Positions 9,293-64,000 of a DNA stretch of 64,000 bases are shown here, piece by piece (positions within the stretch are counted from its first letter, which is position 1; every line of letters begins with the position of its first letter). A program made the translations under genes and the position numbers. This DNA is from Bordetella parapertussis. GTDB lineage: Bacteria > Pseudomonadota > Gammaproteobacteria > Burkholderiales > SG8-39. Under the pieces are notes generated by a model. It saw only the letters and a program-made list of their open reading frames with translations, was not told the origin of the DNA and searched no databases. The DNA lies in assembly GCA_945862265.1 (NCBI GenBank), contig CAMAXP010000015.1, forward strand, positions 25,384 through 89,383, given 5' to 3'.

Positions 9293-10198
9293 ATGCTCAA
9301 GGACAAGGTCATCGTAGTCACGGGCGCGGGGGGCGGCATCGGCCGCGACTTCGCGCATGCCATGGCGGCCAAGGGCGCCAAGGTCGTCGTCAATGACGTC
9401 GGCGCCTCGGTCTCTGGCGAGGGCAAGGATGTGGGCCCCGCGCAGCGGGTGGTCGACGAGATCAAGGCCAAGGGCGGCGTGGCCGTCGCAAACACCGACA
9501 GCGTGGCGGAGTGGGAGGCCGCCAACCGGATCATCAAGACCGCGATTGACGCCTTCGGGCGCATCGACGTGGTGGTGAACAATGCCGGGATCCTGCGCGA
9601 CCGGTTCTTTTTCAACATGTCGATCGAGGAATGGAAGGCCGTGATCGACGTGCACCTGAACGGCAGCTTCTACGTGGCGCGCGCAGCGGCCCCCTACTTC
9701 AAGAGCCAGGCCTCGGGCCGCTACATCAACATGACCTCCACCTCCGGGCTGGTGGGCAACTTCGGCCAGGCCAATTACTCGGCCGCCAAGATGGGCATCG
9801 TGGGGCTGTCGAAATCCATGGCGCTCGACATGGCCAAGTACAACGTCACCTCCAACTGCATCTCGCCGTTTGCGTGGAGCCGCATGATCGGCACCATCCC
9901 CGCCGAGACGCCCGACCAGCAGGCGCGCGTCGAAAAGCTCAAGTCGATGGAAACCGCCAAGATCGCCCCGCTTGCCGTCTACCTCGCGAGTGACGCCTCG
10001 CAGGCCGTCACCGGGCAGATCTTCGCCGTGCGCGCCAACGAGATCTTCCTGATGAGCCAGAGCCGGCCGCTGCGTTCGGTGCACCGCTCGGAGGGCTGGA
10101 CGCCGGAGACCATCGCCGAGCACGCCATTCCGGCGATGCAGGCGCACTTCTACAAGCTCGACCGCTCGCAGGACGTCTTCAGCTGGGATCCCACGTGA
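9293..10198 (+). CDS. SDR-family oxidoreductase resembling the (3R)-hydroxyacyl-CoA dehydrogenase part of multifunctional enzyme type 2
   Basis: KVIVVTGAGGGIGR (TGxxxGxG), NNAGILRD and YSAAK motifs. The track ORF begins at TTG 9278. I prefer ATG 9293, which follows GGAGAA. Confidence 0.9.
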   Translation: MLKDKVIVVTGAGGGIGRDFAHAMAAKGAKVVVNDVGASVSGEGKDVGPAQRVVDEIKAKGGVAVANTDSVAEWEAANRIIKTAIDAFGRIDVVVNNAGILRDRFFFNMSIEEWKAVIDVHLNGSFYVARAAAPYFKSQASGRYINMTSTSGLVGNFGQANYSAAKMGIVGLSKSMALDMAKYNVTSNCISPFAWSRMIGTIPAETPDQQARVEKLKSMETAKIAPLAVYLASDASQAVTGQIFAVRANEIFLMSQSRPLRSVHRSEGWTPETIAEHAIPAMQAHFYKLDRSQDVFSWDPT

Positions 10199-11073: not shown

Positions 11074-11085
11074 AAGCCCAGCTTC

Positions 11086-12045
11086 ATGCGGGTGTTGATG
11101 CTCGGGACCGGTGCGTTGGGCGGATTGTTCGCCCACCACCTCCTGCTTGGCGGCGCGGAAGTCTGCGCGCTCGACATCTGGCAGGAGCACGTCGAGGCAA
11201 TCTCCCGCGACGGCCTGCGCCTCCAGGTCGACGGCCGGGAGATCGTGTCGCCGCTCAGGCGCGCCACGACCTCGCCTCAGGACGCAGGCATCGCAGACCT
11301 GGTCGTGCTTTTCGTGAAGGGCTACGACTCACGCGAGGCGCTCGCCTCCGTACGCCCTGCCGTCGCGCCGCATACGGCCTTCGTGACGCTGCAAAACGGG
11401 TTGGGCAACCCACAACTCGTCCGCGAAATGTTTCCCGCAAACCCTGTGCTGTTCGGGCTGACCACGCTTACGAGCGATGTGCTCGGTCCGGGCCGGATCG
11501 AACCGCGCTCCACGGCCTCCGGCGTGACCGATGTCTGGGCACTCGATGCCGGCGACACCGCGCCCCTGCAGTCGTTCGTTGCCCTGCTCAACCGCGGCGG
11601 CATCAGCGCGCGCGTAAATCCCCAGATCGAGCTCAGCGTCTGGAAAAAACTGGTCGTGAACTGCGCGCTGAACGGGTTGTGCGCGGTCACGGACCTCAAC
11701 TGCGGCCAGATGGATGACGAGGAAGCCATGCGCCAAGTGCTCGACGGCATTGCCGACGAGGTCTCGCTGCTGGCACGCAGCAAGGGTATAGCCCTCGACG
11801 CGGCGCTCGCTCGCAGCTTCCTCAAGGAAGTCACCGAAGCCTCGCGCGAGCACTATCCATCAATGGTGTACGACGTCCGCCGCCGCCGGCGAACGGAAAT
11901 CGAGAACATGAACGGCGCGATCGTTCGCGAATCCGAGCAGCGCGGGCTGGCTGCCCCGTTCAACCGTGTGGTGTACGGATTGGTCCGGGCCGTGGAGGGC
12001 AGCTATACGTCAACGCGAGCTCGCCACCCGGCCGAATTCGGGTGA
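11086..12045 (+). CDS. Ketopantoate reductase (PanE/ApbA) family oxidoreductase
   Basis: MRVLMLGTGALGGLFA Rossmann N-terminus, ...LQNGLGN..., and C-terminal ...YPSMVYDVRRRRRTEIENMNGAIV... typical of the family. Its role as a true PanE is not implied. Confidence 0.85.
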   Translation: MRVLMLGTGALGGLFAHHLLLGGAEVCALDIWQEHVEAISRDGLRLQVDGREIVSPLRRATTSPQDAGIADLVVLFVKGYDSREALASVRPAVAPHTAFVTLQNGLGNPQLVREMFPANPVLFGLTTLTSDVLGPGRIEPRSTASGVTDVWALDAGDTAPLQSFVALLNRGGISARVNPQIELSVWKKLVVNCALNGLCAVTDLNCGQMDDEEAMRQVLDGIADEVSLLARSKGIALDAALARSFLKEVTEASREHYPSMVYDVRRRRRTEIENMNGAIVRESEQRGLAAPFNRVVYGLVRAVEGSYTSTRARHPAEFG

Positions 12046-12108
12046 CGCGCAAGATCCACCTCACTACGTTCCATTAGAATCGGACCATGGGCGGTTTCAG
12101 GGAATTCG

Positions 12109-12243
12109 ATGCGTAAGGCACTACTCCTCGCGGTCGGCGCGTCGCTGTTGATGGCGTTCGTGCTCGGCGCCCTGCTCCTCAAGAGCGAGAAGGCGCCGCC
12201 CGAGCCCGCTGCCCGCAACAGCGCCAACAAGCCTTGCCTGTAG
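12109..12243 (+). pseudogene. 44-codon relic copy of the 5' end of the dsbA-like gene at 13906
   Basis: MRKALLLAVGASLLMAFVLGALLLKSEKAPPEPAARNSANKPCL* matches MRKPLLFAAGAVLLLAFVLGALLLKSEKVPPEPTAHNSAN... of the intact gene. At the DNA level a 72-bp block differs by only 3 mismatches. Confidence 0.65.
12157..12228. repeat. Direct repeat copy A (72 bp, 69/72 identical to 13954-14025)
   Basis: Aligned by eye: ttcgtgctcggcgccctgctcctcaagagcgagaagg[c/t]gccgcccgagccc[g/a]ctgccc[g/a]caacagcgccaac. Confidence 0.9.
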
Positions 12244-12288
12244 ACGCTCCCGGGGGAGTTTTTATGCGCGAAATGGAAACTCCTTGAG

Positions 12289-13029
12289 ATGCCCGGCTGG
12301 CGCAGCCTCTCGCTCCCCGCCCTTGCGCTGGCCGTGGGCGTGGCGGCCTGGACCGACGGCGATACGCCGGCTCTGGCGATCTGCGCCCTGAGCTTCTGGC
12401 ACTACTACCTGTACTGGCTGGCCTACCGCTACGGCGCGGTTCCGATGGCCGATTTCCAGCGTGACGCAGTCGCCGCCAAGACCGTCTCACTCCTTGCGCT
12501 CGGGTATGCCTACTTCACCGCGCCGCTGGACTTAGTCTCGCTGGCCGTGGTCGGAGGGGGATTCCTCCTGAATGCCGTGGCCGCCCGCGCCCTCGGTCGG
12601 GATCGAACCTACTATGGCTACGAACTCGGTGGCGTGCCGCAACAGCACGTCGCGGCCTTCCCATACTCCTGGATCCCGCATCCCATGCTGCTGGGAAACA
12701 TGGCCGCTTTCGGCGGCACGCTGCTCAACGCGGGATTCTGTGAGCAGTGGTGGCCCCTGGCCGGCGCCCACGTGGCCCTGAACCTGGGGTTGCTGGTCAT
12801 GGAGGCGGTGGTCACACCCCTGCGCGGTACGGTGCCCCCCGCTACGCGCCATCCCCTGCCGGCGACCGGCCTGGCTGCGGCCGCGGGAGCGGCGGCCGGC
12901 GCGGCGGGCGCGTCCCTGGCGGACGCCGCCCTCTGGACCGGGGCGGTCGTCGGCGCGGCCGCAGGCGCACATGCAACTGTCATGTACTTCTGGTATTCCT
13001 CGCCGCCATCGAAAGGAGGAATCCCATGA
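12289..13029 (+). CDS. Polytopic membrane protein, PEMT/ICMT-like phospholipid methyltransferase family (tentative)
   Basis: Several hydrophobic segments. The motif TYYGYELGGVPQQHVAAFPYSWIPHPMLLGNMAAFGG resembles the PEMT signature (GDYFG...V..FPF....NPMY.G). The C-terminal tail is Ala/Gly-rich. GC3 is high. Confidence 0.55.
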   Translation: MPGWRSLSLPALALAVGVAAWTDGDTPALAICALSFWHYYLYWLAYRYGAVPMADFQRDAVAAKTVSLLALGYAYFTAPLDLVSLAVVGGGFLLNAVAARALGRDRTYYGYELGGVPQQHVAAFPYSWIPHPMLLGNMAAFGGTLLNAGFCEQWWPLAGAHVALNLGLLVMEAVVTPLRGTVPPATRHPLPATGLAAAAGAAAGAAGASLADAALWTGAVVGAAAGAHATVMYFWYSSPPSKGGIP

Positions 13030-13874
13030 GTGATGCAGCGCGACTCGACAAGGTGGACACTTACCCGGCAGGACGCCCGAAAGCAATGAAGCGATTCCCG
13101 GCCACTTTAGGCCGGTTCAACACCCCTGAAGCCCGCGCGACCATGGACGCCTTGGTGGCGTGGATCGAGGAGTGCTACCGGGAAGACCTCCTGCTGCGGC
13201 CCTCGAAGCACGTCTATGTCCGCAAACTGCCCGCCGAAGTCATCGCGCAGGTCGACCGGCTGCGCAACAGCGACGTGATCCGGGACGCCATCCTCGGGCA
13301 GTTCGACCCCGACAGCGTGATTACTCCGATGCCGCACACCGACGAACTGTATCTCTCCCACTACAACAAGGACTTCGGCGGCGACCAGGGGCTCTACAGC
13401 AAGCACTACGACGGCAACCTGCGCTTCGTCCCCCTCGGCGCCGTCGTCCGCGCGCTGATCTACCTGCAGTCCGACGCGACCTACAAGGTGGTCTTCGGCG
13501 ACAGCAAGGTCGAGAAGGCGTTCACGACCTACGAGTTCGGGTTGCTCGACTTCCACCGCGAGTTGCACTGGGTCGAAGGCGAGTACAACCCCGACGACCA
13601 GCAGCGCATCCTGCTCAAGTGCAACTACATGATCGCCCCGCGCAACGCAGGCTTCCTCGCCCGCGCCGTACTCGCCGCCAACACCGGCGTGTTCTACGTG
13701 GTGAAGGCGGCGATGGAGTACTCCAAGAGCCCGAAGAACCCGCTGCAGGTCTTCGTGGGCCTGCTGTGCAACGTGTTCCGTGTACTGAACAACGTCCACC
13801 CGCTCGTTCCGCTCGCGTTGATCGCCGCGGTCGTGGCCGGACTGTGCTGGGGGATGGGGCGCCTGCTAAGCTAG
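13026..13874 (+). CDS. Uncharacterised 282-aa protein with C-terminal hydrophobic segments
   Basis: ATG 13026 overlaps the upstream stop (ATGA). GC3 is high throughout. I recognise no family. A possible H-x-D...H arrangement (KHYDGN ... FHRELHWVEG) is present, and the C-terminal stretches FLARAVLAANTGVFYVV and LVPLALIAAVVAGLCWGMG are hydrophobic. Confidence 0.7.
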   Translation: MSDAARLDKVDTYPAGRPKAMKRFPATLGRFNTPEARATMDALVAWIEECYREDLLLRPSKHVYVRKLPAEVIAQVDRLRNSDVIRDAILGQFDPDSVITPMPHTDELYLSHYNKDFGGDQGLYSKHYDGNLRFVPLGAVVRALIYLQSDATYKVVFGDSKVEKAFTTYEFGLLDFHRELHWVEGEYNPDDQQRILLKCNYMIAPRNAGFLARAVLAANTGVFYVVKAAMEYSKSPKNPLQVFVGLLCNVFRVLNNVHPLVPLALIAAVVAGLCWGMGRLLS

Positions 13875-13905
13875 CCGCCCATGATCTGCGATTCCTGGAA
13901 AATTG

Positions 13906-14550
13906 ATGCGCAAGCCACTGCTCTTCGCCGCCGGCGCTGTCCTGCTGCTCGCCTTCGTGCTCGGCGCCCTGCTCCTCAAGAGCGAGAAGGTGCCGCCCGA
14001 GCCCACTGCCCACAACAGCGCCAACCTCGTGCGCATGCATTCGCCCACGCTGGGCAACGCCGATGCGCCGGTCGTGATCGTGGAGTTCCTCGATCCCGCC
14101 TGCGAAACCTGCAAGGCGTTCTACCCCGTGGTCAAGAAGCTGATGCAGGACAACCCCGGCCGGATCCGGCTGGTGCTGCGCTACGCCCCCTTCCACAAGG
14201 GCTCCGACAAGGTGGTTGCGATGCTGGAAGGCGCGCGCAAACAGGGCAAGTTCTGGCCCGCTCTGGAAGCCCTGCTGGCGACGCAGGCCGACTGGGCGCC
14301 GCATCACACGGCCCAGCCGGACCTGGCCTGGCGGCACTTGGAGGGCCTGGGCCTGGACCTCGCGCAGGTGCGTGCAGACATGGCCTCCCCCGGCGTCGCC
14401 CAGGTGATCGCCCAGGACCTGGCCGACAGCCGGGCGCTCGACGTCACCATGACCCCGGAGTTTTTCGTCAACGGCCAGCCGCTGCCCAGTTTCGGCTACG
14501 AGCAGCTGCGCAAGCAGGTCGAAGCGGCGCTCGCCGCGTCCCGCCGCTAG
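13906..14550 (+). CDS. DsbA-family thiol:disulfide oxidoreductase, N-terminally membrane-anchored
   Basis: The N-terminal anchor LLFAAGAVLLLAFVLGALLL is followed by a thioredoxin-fold region with the CxxC motif (FLDPACETCKAFYP). The tail is ...TPEFFVNGQPL.... Confidence 0.85.
   Translation: MRKPLLFAAGAVLLLAFVLGALLLKSEKVPPEPTAHNSANLVRMHSPTLGNADAPVVIVEFLDPACETCKAFYPVVKKLMQDNPGRIRLVLRYAPFHKGSDKVVAMLEGARKQGKFWPALEALLATQADWAPHHTAQPDLAWRHLEGLGLDLAQVRADMASPGVAQVIAQDLADSRALDVTMTPEFFVNGQPLPSFGYEQLRKQVEAALAASRR
13954..14025. repeat. Direct repeat copy B (inside the intact dsbA-like gene)
   Basis: See copy A at 12157-12228. Confidence 0.9.
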
Positions 14551-14552
14551 CC

Positions 14553-14681
14553 GTGGACATCGAACGCTTCAAGCTGCAGGACGACATCACGCTCACCTAC
14601 GAGGTGCTGGAGGCGAAGTTCGAGCAAGAGCTCTGCCGCGTATGCCGCCTCTGGTGGCAAAGCCTGCCGGTCGCACCATGA
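14553..14681 (+). CDS. Candidate 42-codon ORF or gene-fragment remnant
   Basis: GTG 14553, 2 nt after the dsbA-like stop. The product is VDIERFKLQDDITLTYEVLEAKFEQELCRVCRLWWQSLPVAP*. GC3 is high in this frame, and it forms the tail of a longer, implausible track ORF (13881-14681). Confidence 0.25.
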   Translation: MDIERFKLQDDITLTYEVLEAKFEQELCRVCRLWWQSLPVAP

Positions 14682-14715
14682 CCGCTTACGTTCAAACTTC
14701 GGAGCAGCCCAAGCC

Positions 14716-63928: not shown

Positions 63929-64000
63929 TGGCGGAGTGGACGGGACTCGAACCCGCGACCTCTGCCGTGACAGGGCAGCATTCTAACCAACTGAACTACC
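63929..64000 (-). tRNA. tRNA-Asp (anticodon GTC), 5' ~5 nt outside window
   Basis: The reverse complement reads ggTAGTTCAGTTGGTTAGAATGCTGCCCTGTCACGGCAGAGGTCGCGGGTTCGAGTCCCGTCCACTCCGCCA. It shows a D-loop, the anticodon loop CT-GTC-AC, a T-arm GGTTCGAGTCC and an encoded CCA. Confidence 0.9.

Follow-up and report, generated by a model that had tools for sequence, protein, structure and literature searches.

Recombination with one homologous end and one illegitimate end defines homology-facilitated illegitimate recombination (HFIR) (PMC3240628). HFIR is known from transformation of Acinetobacter, Streptococcus pneumoniae, and Pseudomonas stutzeri and from conjugation in Escherichia coli (PMC3240628 and references in PMC5361080), and it has been invoked for natural gene arrays in which displacement of type VI secretion system (T6SS) modules leaves orphan fragments (PMC5361080). 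Among lipid-modifying enzymes, the Fe(II)/2-oxoglutarate (2OG) hydroxylases LpxO, OlsC, and OlsD and the PEMT-related N-methyltransferase OlsG decorate lipids (PMC12971839). Here, we describe a locus in which two genes, one of the PEMT family and one with a predicted Fe(II)/2OG oxygenase-like fold, lie between a truncated and an intact copy of the 5′ end of a dsbA-like gene, and we compare it with loci in which the two genes are absent. The locus is found in a 64,000-nucleotide (nt) stretch of DNA, hereafter called the window, that is deposited under Bordetella parapertussis (GCA_945862265.1, contig CAMAXP010000015.1, positions 25,384 to 89,383 of the forward strand) and is referred to here as an uncultured betaproteobacterium.

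Two genes lie between related copies of a dsbA 5′ end

The two genes between the copies are called the cargo or the module. Loci that carry them are called filled and those that lack them empty, and two dsbA alleles that are described below are called type A and type P. The features of the locus, in window coordinates, are as follows.

11086 to 12045, plus strand: panE/apbA, 2-dehydropantoate 2-reductase family (Pfam ApbA and ApbA_C; TIGR00745), the left flank common to filled and empty alleles
12046 to 12108, plus strand: native panE-dsbA spacer of 63 nt, leader of the type A dsbA, collinear with the empty-site spacer with 2 fixed differences
12091 to 12228, plus strand: left copy of a 138-nt direct repeat, from the repeat search (family D1) and pairwise alignment
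12109 to 12243, plus strand: stump open reading frame (ORF) of 44 amino acids (aa), of which 12109 to 12228 are codons 1 to 40 of type A dsbA
12228/12229: J1, the illegitimate joint between nt 120 of type A dsbA and the cargo leader; empty-site homology ends at 12228
12229 to 12243, plus strand: read-through tail of the stump, KPCL and a stop codon, in cargo-derived sequence
12229 to 12288, plus strand: cargo leader of 60 nt, present in filled alleles only
12289 to 13029, plus strand: gene for a PEMT-family membrane methyltransferase-like protein of 246 aa (Pfam PF04191)
13026 to 13874, plus strand: gene for a 282-aa protein of no Pfam family with a predicted Fe(II)/2OG oxygenase-like fold (AlphaFold2 model and Foldseek)
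13883/13884: J2, the right limit of cargo-specific DNA, 9 nt past the stop codon, where the leader of type P dsbA starts; homology to contig L018 runs from 13884
13888 to 14025, plus strand: right copy of the 138-nt direct repeat, from the repeat search, alignment, and shuffles
13906 to 14550, plus strand: intact dsbA-like gene, type P, for a membrane-anchored thioredoxin-fold protein (Pfam Thioredoxin_4 and DSBA; CETC motif)

The direct repeat (12091 to 12228 versus 13888 to 14025) was returned by the repeat search as 138 nt that are 83% identical at a spacing of 1797. The distal 72 nt (12157 to 12228 versus 13954 to 14025) are identical at 69 positions, with three differences counted, and no match of that kind arose in 100 dinucleotide-preserving shuffles of the window. 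The proximal part is more diverged, as the first 51 coding nt are identical at 37 positions and roughly 18 to 20 nt of leader can be aligned. A sequence-only reading of this DNA had claimed that the 44-codon ORF repeats codons 1 to 40 of the dsbA-like gene, that the distal 72 bp are nearly identical, that the first ~50 bp and the leader are related but more diverged, and that exactly two translationally coupled genes lie between the copies. The alignments agree with all four statements.

The two cargo genes overlap by the sequence ATGA, and the start of the 282-aa gene is corrected from 13028 to 13026. A further 31 nt separate the 282-aa gene from the dsbA-like gene, and mlrC comes next. The dsbA-like product has 214 aa, an N-terminal membrane anchor, and a CETC (CxxC) motif, and it matches Pfam Thioredoxin_4 (E value, 1.5e-19) and DSBA (E value, 2e-8).

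Empty and filled alleles of the locus

Empty sites were found, as the sequence-only reading had anticipated in proposing a search for a reductase gene followed directly by an intact dsbA-like gene. In five contigs from related metagenomes (L001 and L004 to L007), panE is followed by 63 nt and then by intact dsbA within the same synteny, which runs from electron transfer flavoprotein (ETF) genes through ChsH2-like, thiolase, aldolase, short-chain dehydrogenase/reductase (SDR), and MaoC genes to panE, dsbA, mlrC, and an M28 peptidase gene. The DsbA proteins of these contigs are 93 to 96% identical to that of the window. When aligned, the empty-site sequence equals the window up to 12228 fused to the window from 14026, without an indel.

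The two borders of the insert differ in kind. On the left, the stump is collinear with the 5′ end of the empty-site dsbA to position 12228 except for a few single-nucleotide polymorphisms (SNPs; 12169, 12208, and 12210), whereupon homology stops abruptly and the next 60 nt match nothing outside filled alleles. On the right, the window from 14026 onward is collinear with the empty sites without an indel, which amounts to an in-register homologous join. Homology to L018 begins at 13884, 22 nt upstream of the dsbA start codon, and the cargo-specific DNA is therefore 12229 to 13883, that is, 60 nt, the two genes, and 9 nt. Thus, the proposal that a segment entered at the 5′ end of dsbA and left a stump on one side and an intact gene on the other agrees with both the empty sites and the alignment. 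Its size of ~1.8 kb has to be revised, as cargo-specific DNA accounts for only 1655 nt and 13884 to 14025 is assigned to the incoming dsbA allele.

The filled arrangement, including the stump, is present in at least nine contigs (L011 to L014, L104, and L157 to L160) from several ENA, JGI, and NCBI samples. J1 and J2 are identical base for base across the filled contigs (nine in the case of J1), and thus the filled arrangement arose once. A more divergent strain, compared by gene order, has the arrangement MaoC-EamA-panE-stump-module-dsbA (P0006 locus), in which panE encodes 315 aa and the stump 51 aa. Diversity among filled alleles is lowest near J1 and the methyltransferase gene (pi, 0.000 to 0.011) relative to the flanks, which fits a young junction of single origin that would later have been spread by homologous recombination.

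The repeat copies are two alleles of dsbA

The N termini of DsbA fall into two types. Empty sites and the stump have type A (MRKALLLAVGASLLMAF), and the intact gene of filled loci has type P (MRKPLLFAAGAVLLLAF). Sister lineages that are 88 to 91% identical (L018 and L019 to L022) have type P as well, and in them a small lipoprotein ORF and other genes, not the module, lie ahead of dsbA. Outgroups (L018, L019, L021, and L023) carry the type P state at nearly all of the 14 diagnostic sites within the first 51 nt, and the first 51 nt and the 22-nt leader of the intact gene match the sister lineages, not the empty sites. From these comparisons, we conclude that the two repeat copies are two alleles from two lineages and not a duplication of one sequence, the intact gene being an incoming or alternative allele and the stump probably the broken resident allele linked to panE.

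The type A 5′ end is itself an odd allele. From about −20 to +51 (12089 to 12159 versus 13886 to 13956), it has 14 differences from type P in 51 coding nt, with the outgroups siding with type P, and over the remainder of dsbA the two types differ by only a few percent. One possibility is that the type A 5′ end was imported earlier together with panE by a crossover in the conserved stretch of nt 52 to 85.

Origin of the filled arrangement

The reading that we favor, and to which we give about an even chance of being correct, is that two closely related lineages recombined once, by one in-register homologous exchange and one illegitimate joint at codon 40, and that the locus is the resulting scar. 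One parent would have had the arrangement of the empty sites, in which panE and the 63-nt leader precede a dsbA whose 5′ end is type A. In the other, a dsbA with a type P 5′ end would have followed directly after the two-gene module, separated from it by 9 nt and the 22-nt leader. The homologous exchange would have taken place in register within or downstream of dsbA, and the non-homologous joint would have connected nt 120 of the resident dsbA to a point 60 nt upstream of the methyltransferase gene, cutting the resident gene after codon 40 and leaving the 44-codon stump. As the incoming fragment would have brought a complete dsbA, dsbA function would have been kept. One-ended homologous repair with, or HFIR of, a linear fragment would be the likeliest form of the event; for example, after a break at nt 120/121, the right end could have invaded the donor allele and copied leftward through the module, with the left end sealed without homology. 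The filled haplotype would later have spread among strains via ordinary homologous recombination in the flanks. The sequences themselves show the empty and filled alleles, the positions of the junctions, their single origin, the two dsbA alleles, the lack of mobile-element features, and the linkage of the cargo genes to each other; whether the intermediate was linear or circular, which lineage was the recipient, co-transcription, and biochemical function are points on which we infer rather than observe.

Nine filled-specific SNPs relative to empty sites (13966, 14145, 14181, 14454, 14484, 14490, 14538, 14550, and 14596) are shared by the five filled contigs compared over this stretch (the window, L011 to L013, and L104) and extend along the entire dsbA gene. 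The divergent right-hand tract ends at ~14626, ~15100, or ~16725 depending on the filled contig, against a background that is a 0 to 8% mosaic and with a left flank that is similarly linked. The right flank was considered as a bounded donor block that might speak to polarity and to a linear versus a Campbell-type event, and it was set aside and is not relied on, as the wider comparison gave a patchy 0 to 8% mosaic everywhere.

Several observations weigh against the favored reading. Given the mosaic structure of the strains, the right-hand SNP tract may reflect linkage in a founder haplotype and not imported DNA, and fixed differences from empty sites are about as dense to the left of J1 (6 in 440 nt) as they are through dsbA (8). 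No donor-type contig, with the module next to type P dsbA and without panE and the stump, was found in the collections searched, and every type P dsbA with the same linker that was looked up had the filled arrangement, stump included. Elsewhere, the nearest homologues of the cargo (89% in L015 and L016 and 87% in L017) sit in other contexts. It could also be that the side with panE and the stump was the incoming DNA and that the module was resident. Moreover, Campbell crossovers classically leave the homologous segment as a direct repeat, and such products outnumbered true homology-facilitated illegitimate events 56 to 4 in E. coli conjugation (PMC3240628). Finally, the function of the cargo is drawn from one family match and one fold match with a template modeling (TM) score of ~0.4.

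A Campbell-type crossover is a possible, if somewhat unlikely, origin for the locus. A 1797-nt donor fragment, with one end 60 nt ahead of the methyltransferase gene and the other at dsbA nt 120, would have been circularized by end joining and integrated by a single crossover within dsbA nt 52 to 120, such that the homologous segment was duplicated and the closure joint of the circle came to lie at 12228/12229. The architecture matches that of a single crossover exactly, as direct repeats flank the insert and the left copy stops at the non-homologous joint; ahead of nt 51, the left copy is still type A and the right copy type P, the near-identical 72-nt zone lies where the crossover is expected, and duplications of 109 to 950 bp were the majority class in the E. 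coli experiments (PMC3240628). However, the crossover would have had only ~70 highly identical nt to work with, no function for replication or integration that could maintain a 1.8-kb circle is present, and haplotype-specific SNPs run through all of dsbA past the proposed crossover in the five filled contigs compared, a pattern that linkage could also explain. Nor does the stretch of nt 52 to 120 hold a diagnostic site that separates donor from recipient. In the reverse scenario, the filled arrangement would be ancestral for the species and the empty sites would be secondary deletions by recombination between the direct repeats, with no recent insertion in the window. A crossover in the 72-nt zone would indeed restore the exact empty-site sequence, a type A 5′ end joined to the rest of dsbA, and the filled form also occurs in the more divergent strain in a different left context (EamA, a 315-aa panE product, and a 51-aa stump). 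Yet only empty sites carry a full-length type A gene, from which the truncated type A fragment must have come, and 8 fixed differences in dsbA set the empty sites apart from the five filled contigs compared, which means that they did not arise recently by deletion from the filled haplotypes sampled. The minimum of diversity at J1 and the methyltransferase gene, furthermore, is what a younger junction of single origin would give, and the original formation of the stump would still require the same kind of illegitimate event. We consider this scenario improbable.

A site-specific mobile element, whether an integron cassette, a miniature transposon, or an integrase-driven islet replacing the 5′ end of a gene, is extremely improbable. 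Islands that target the 5′ end of a gene and rebuild it on insertion (the dusA-specific islands, for example) bear a superficial likeness to the locus, and the insert is compact, with only 60 nt and 9 nt of non-coding flank. However, in agreement with what the sequence-only reading had reported, no integrase or transposase family was present in the insert or in the Pfam tables of the syntenic region ~8 kb to each side, and no tyrosine or serine recombinase gene or IntI was found over the same span. The repeat search gave no terminal inverted repeats at the insert, its ends carry neither a short identical att core nor an attC-like palindrome, and no repeat flanks it apart from the 138-nt one, which consists of diverged homologous gene sequence. 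The surroundings of the module in other genomes are unrelated and have no flank in common, and homologues of the 282-aa protein were absent from plasmid and phage collections. Of the two mechanisms that had been offered for the locus, Campbell-type or cassette-like, the cassette-like one is not supported, no recombinase, att or attC sites, or terminal inverted repeats having been found, and the Campbell-type one is a possibility that the data do not separate from a linear one-ended event.

Some candidate vehicles were rejected individually. A transposon or insertion sequence was dismissed on the lack of terminal inverted repeats, a short target-site duplication, or a transposase, and a plasmid or phage vehicle on the lack of a match to the 282-aa protein in either collection. 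There was no tRNA near the locus; one tRNA gene (63932 to 64000, minus strand; Rfam RF00005, 55 bits) is cut by the end of the window and is unrelated to the insert. GC content at third codon positions (GC3) is 0.82 and 0.89 in the cargo genes, inside the window range of 0.84 ± 0.05, and overall GC is also indistinguishable from that of the flanks; thus, composition is uninformative as to foreign origin.

The stump ORF and the cargo leader

The 44-codon ORF might be a functional gene for a small membrane protein kept by selection, an idea that we regard as very unlikely. The stump has the native leader and start codon, its signal-anchor helix is intact, and none of the 8 sequenced alleles has lost the open frame. 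Its variable codons among those alleles are 1 synonymous and 2 non-synonymous, numbers too small to decide the matter, and the ORF is longer in the P0006 locus than in the window and matches no protein family. We find no evidence in the sequences, from a small sample, of a conserved independent gene, in keeping with the earlier interpretation of the ORF as a relic.

Downstream of the stump, the cargo leader holds a 5-bp GC hairpin followed by TTTTT (12246 to 12259, just past the stump stop codon), which is not above shuffle expectation. It also holds a 7-codon mini-ORF (12264 to 12287; MREMETP) that is preceded by a Shine-Dalgarno-like sequence, GGGGGAG, and ends 1 nt ahead of the start codon of the PEMT-like gene. 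The elements at 12246 to 12288 could be a leftover terminator of the upstream gene of the donor or a coupling upstream ORF; they were not above chance in the scan. The promoter scan found no promoter-like site.

The cargo genes

The 246-aa protein matches Pfam PEMT (PF04191) over residues 83 to 172 (E value, 1.3e-7; 32.4 bits versus a gathering cutoff of 25), and no NCBIfam equivalog was found for it. By this match, we conclude that the protein is a PEMT-family member and a putative methyltransferase.

The 282-aa protein gave no match in Pfam, NCBIfam, or PDB sequences. For its family, no Pfam family was returned even at E values of up to 10 (25 members), and a 25-sequence profile gave nothing relevant against PDB sequences. 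The AlphaFold2 model has a mean predicted local distance difference test (pLDDT) score of 77.6 and a predicted TM score (pTM) of 0.75, with low confidence at residues 116 to 127. All 50 of the 50 Foldseek PDB matches listed were oxygenases, almost all explicitly Fe/2OG enzymes (OkaE, P3H1, FtmOx1, PHD2, and P4H), and the best match had an E value of 2e-5 at a TM score of only ~0.4. The model thus predicts a double-stranded beta-helix with an Fe(II)/2OG oxygenase-like fold. Residues H127-Y-D129, H181, and R194 are invariant in 25 sequences, with a spacing that would be plausible for an HxD/E...H triad and a basic 2OG-binding residue. Judging from position and hydrophobic sequence, the three C-terminal helices are probably a membrane anchor.

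Among filled alleles, synonymous variable codons outnumber non-synonymous ones in both the PEMT-like gene (5 versus 3) and the 282-aa gene (22 versus 11), an excess that suggests that both cargo genes are under constraint. The PEMT-like gene varies far less than its neighbors in the same alleles: variable codons number 8 of 246 in the PEMT-like gene, 33 of 282 in the 282-aa gene, 28 of 214 in dsbA, and 38 of 319 in panE, and those of the 282-aa gene cluster at residues 14 to 101.

The module in other genomes

Of 77 genomes from several phyla whose loci had room for it, 74 had the PEMT-like gene immediately ahead of the 282-aa gene, and the question raised earlier of whether the cargo genes travel together elsewhere is thereby answered in the affirmative. 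Members of the 282-aa family with 63 to 75% aa identity occur in Burkholderiales, Geminicoccaceae, Reyranella, Hyphomicrobiales, Planctomycetaceae, Pirellulales, Bryobacterales, and Verrucomicrobiales, and the module is strongly conserved across Proteobacteria, Planctomycetota, Acidobacteriota, and Verrucomicrobiota. Its flanks are unrelated, with 61 and 102 different Pfam families, none of which occurs in more than 3 loci. The exception is a group of ~20 Reyranella/Rhodospirillales loci (L058, L062, L071, L075, L081, L084, L087, L089, L093, and L096 to L102) in which the module is followed by genes for a weak Mpo1-like membrane protein, a 575-aa class-III aminotransferase-like protein, and a phosphatidylserine decarboxylase. 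These neighbors hint at a lipid head-group pathway.

Our guess is that the pair may tailor a membrane lipid or another hydrophobic substrate, because LpxO/OlsC/OlsD and OlsG are the same two enzyme types. LpxO, OlsC, and OlsD, however, belong to a Pfam family that the 282-aa protein, without a match to any Pfam family, does not share. A bolder reading, which we hold to be doubtful, is that the pair would constitute a membrane-lipid tailoring module, self-sufficient and so far undescribed, that passes from phylum to phylum with no mobile element and is repeatedly captured by one-ended homologous recombination beside conserved genes, breaking a resident gene each time. Under that bolder reading, two independent captures would be seen in the same operon, one at dsbA codon 40 in the window and one inside the SDR gene in contig L017.

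Two further loci carry versions of the module. In L017 (7052 to 9382; NCBI GCA_037975565.1), the same module, at 77% nt identity, lies two genes upstream and replaces most of the SDR gene; at its left border, a 117-nt SDR fragment (window 9891 to 10007) is retained, and a 61-aa ORF lies before MaoC. The arrangement looks like an independent capture with another gene relic, in a related metagenome-assembled genome that has frameshifts and is of moderate reliability. In L151 (5920 to 6378; JGI Ga0307372_10001046), ~35 residues of the PEMT-like N terminus adjoin a segment that is 83% identical to residues 137 to 262 of the 282-aa protein. This looks like what is left of the module after an internal deletion that joined both genes.

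Neighboring genes

The interval between MaoC and dsbA (window 11074 to 13905) is variable among relatives. It holds nothing in L023, panE in the empty sites, a PEP-CTERM protein gene and two small ORFs in L018, EamA and a 76-aa ORF in L019, and EamA, panE, the stump, and the module in the P0006 locus. The interval appears to be a local hot spot of gene gain and loss in a recombining population.

On the other side of dsbA, a 42-codon ORF (14553 to 14681) is a relic of the SnoaL_2 family, an intact 135-aa member of which follows dsbA in the sister lineage L021. The last 25 residues of the relic are 76% identical to the L021 protein, and the DNA matches at 14565 to 14605 and 14604 to 14683.

Distant homologues of the DsbA-like protein (73% identical) are encoded in translational coupling to a DsbB gene at L008 (7552 to 8654), inside a locus for copper/resistance-nodulation-division (RND) efflux, a multicopper oxidase, and MerR/MerT. 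The dsbA of the window has no adjacent dsbB. The L008 context suggests that the usual role of the DsbA-like family is envelope oxidative folding linked to metal stress.

Comparison with described systems

Alleles from before and after the event are both present in public metagenomes, whereas such scars are usually inferred and not seen with an exact empty site. The locus illustrates gene acquisition without mobile-element machinery, in which the gene that is broken also arrives whole on the incoming fragment. It also bears on annotation, in that short ORFs echoing the 5′ end of a neighboring gene can be recombination relics. The 282-aa family, absent from Pfam and predicted to be a membrane-bound 2OG oxygenase, is a reasonable target for lipid biochemistry.

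The known enzymes that the cargo resembles are membrane-associated proteins of the 2OG-oxygenase and PEMT classes that decorate lipid A, ornithine lipids, and phospholipids. Unlike them, the 282-aa protein belongs to no Pfam family and has only predicted fold matches, and the known enzymes are not encoded as a fixed pair.

As in HFIR, one end of the insert is homologous and the other is not, foreign DNA without a counterpart in the recipient has been trapped, and no dedicated recombinase is involved. The locus differs in that it is read from natural alleles and not from an experiment, and in that the joint lies inside the gene that supplies the homology, which sets a stump and a complete allele side by side in place of a simple deletion. 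Campbell crossovers, as in the lacZ duplications (PMC3240628), likewise leave direct repeats that flank an insert, with one copy truncated at the point of circle closure; here, in contrast, no plasmid or other circular vehicle is evident, and homology would be limited to ~140 nt, of which 72 nt are near-identical. In the displacement of T6SS effector-immunity modules or of Rhs and contact-dependent inhibition (CDI) toxin tips (Vibrio cholerae; PMC5361080), a module also enters beside a conserved anchor segment, truncated remnants stay behind, no integrase is found, and HFIR has been proposed. Here, however, the cargo does not consist of a toxin and its immunity protein, a dsbA-like gene of housekeeping type serves as the anchor, and only a single round can be seen, with no array. 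We conclude that the event belongs to a known class, that of illegitimate plus homologous recombination without mobile-element machinery, and that it is an ordinary event with an unusually clean scar. What is new is the cleanness of the example and the uncharacterized, widely transferred two-gene module that it carries.

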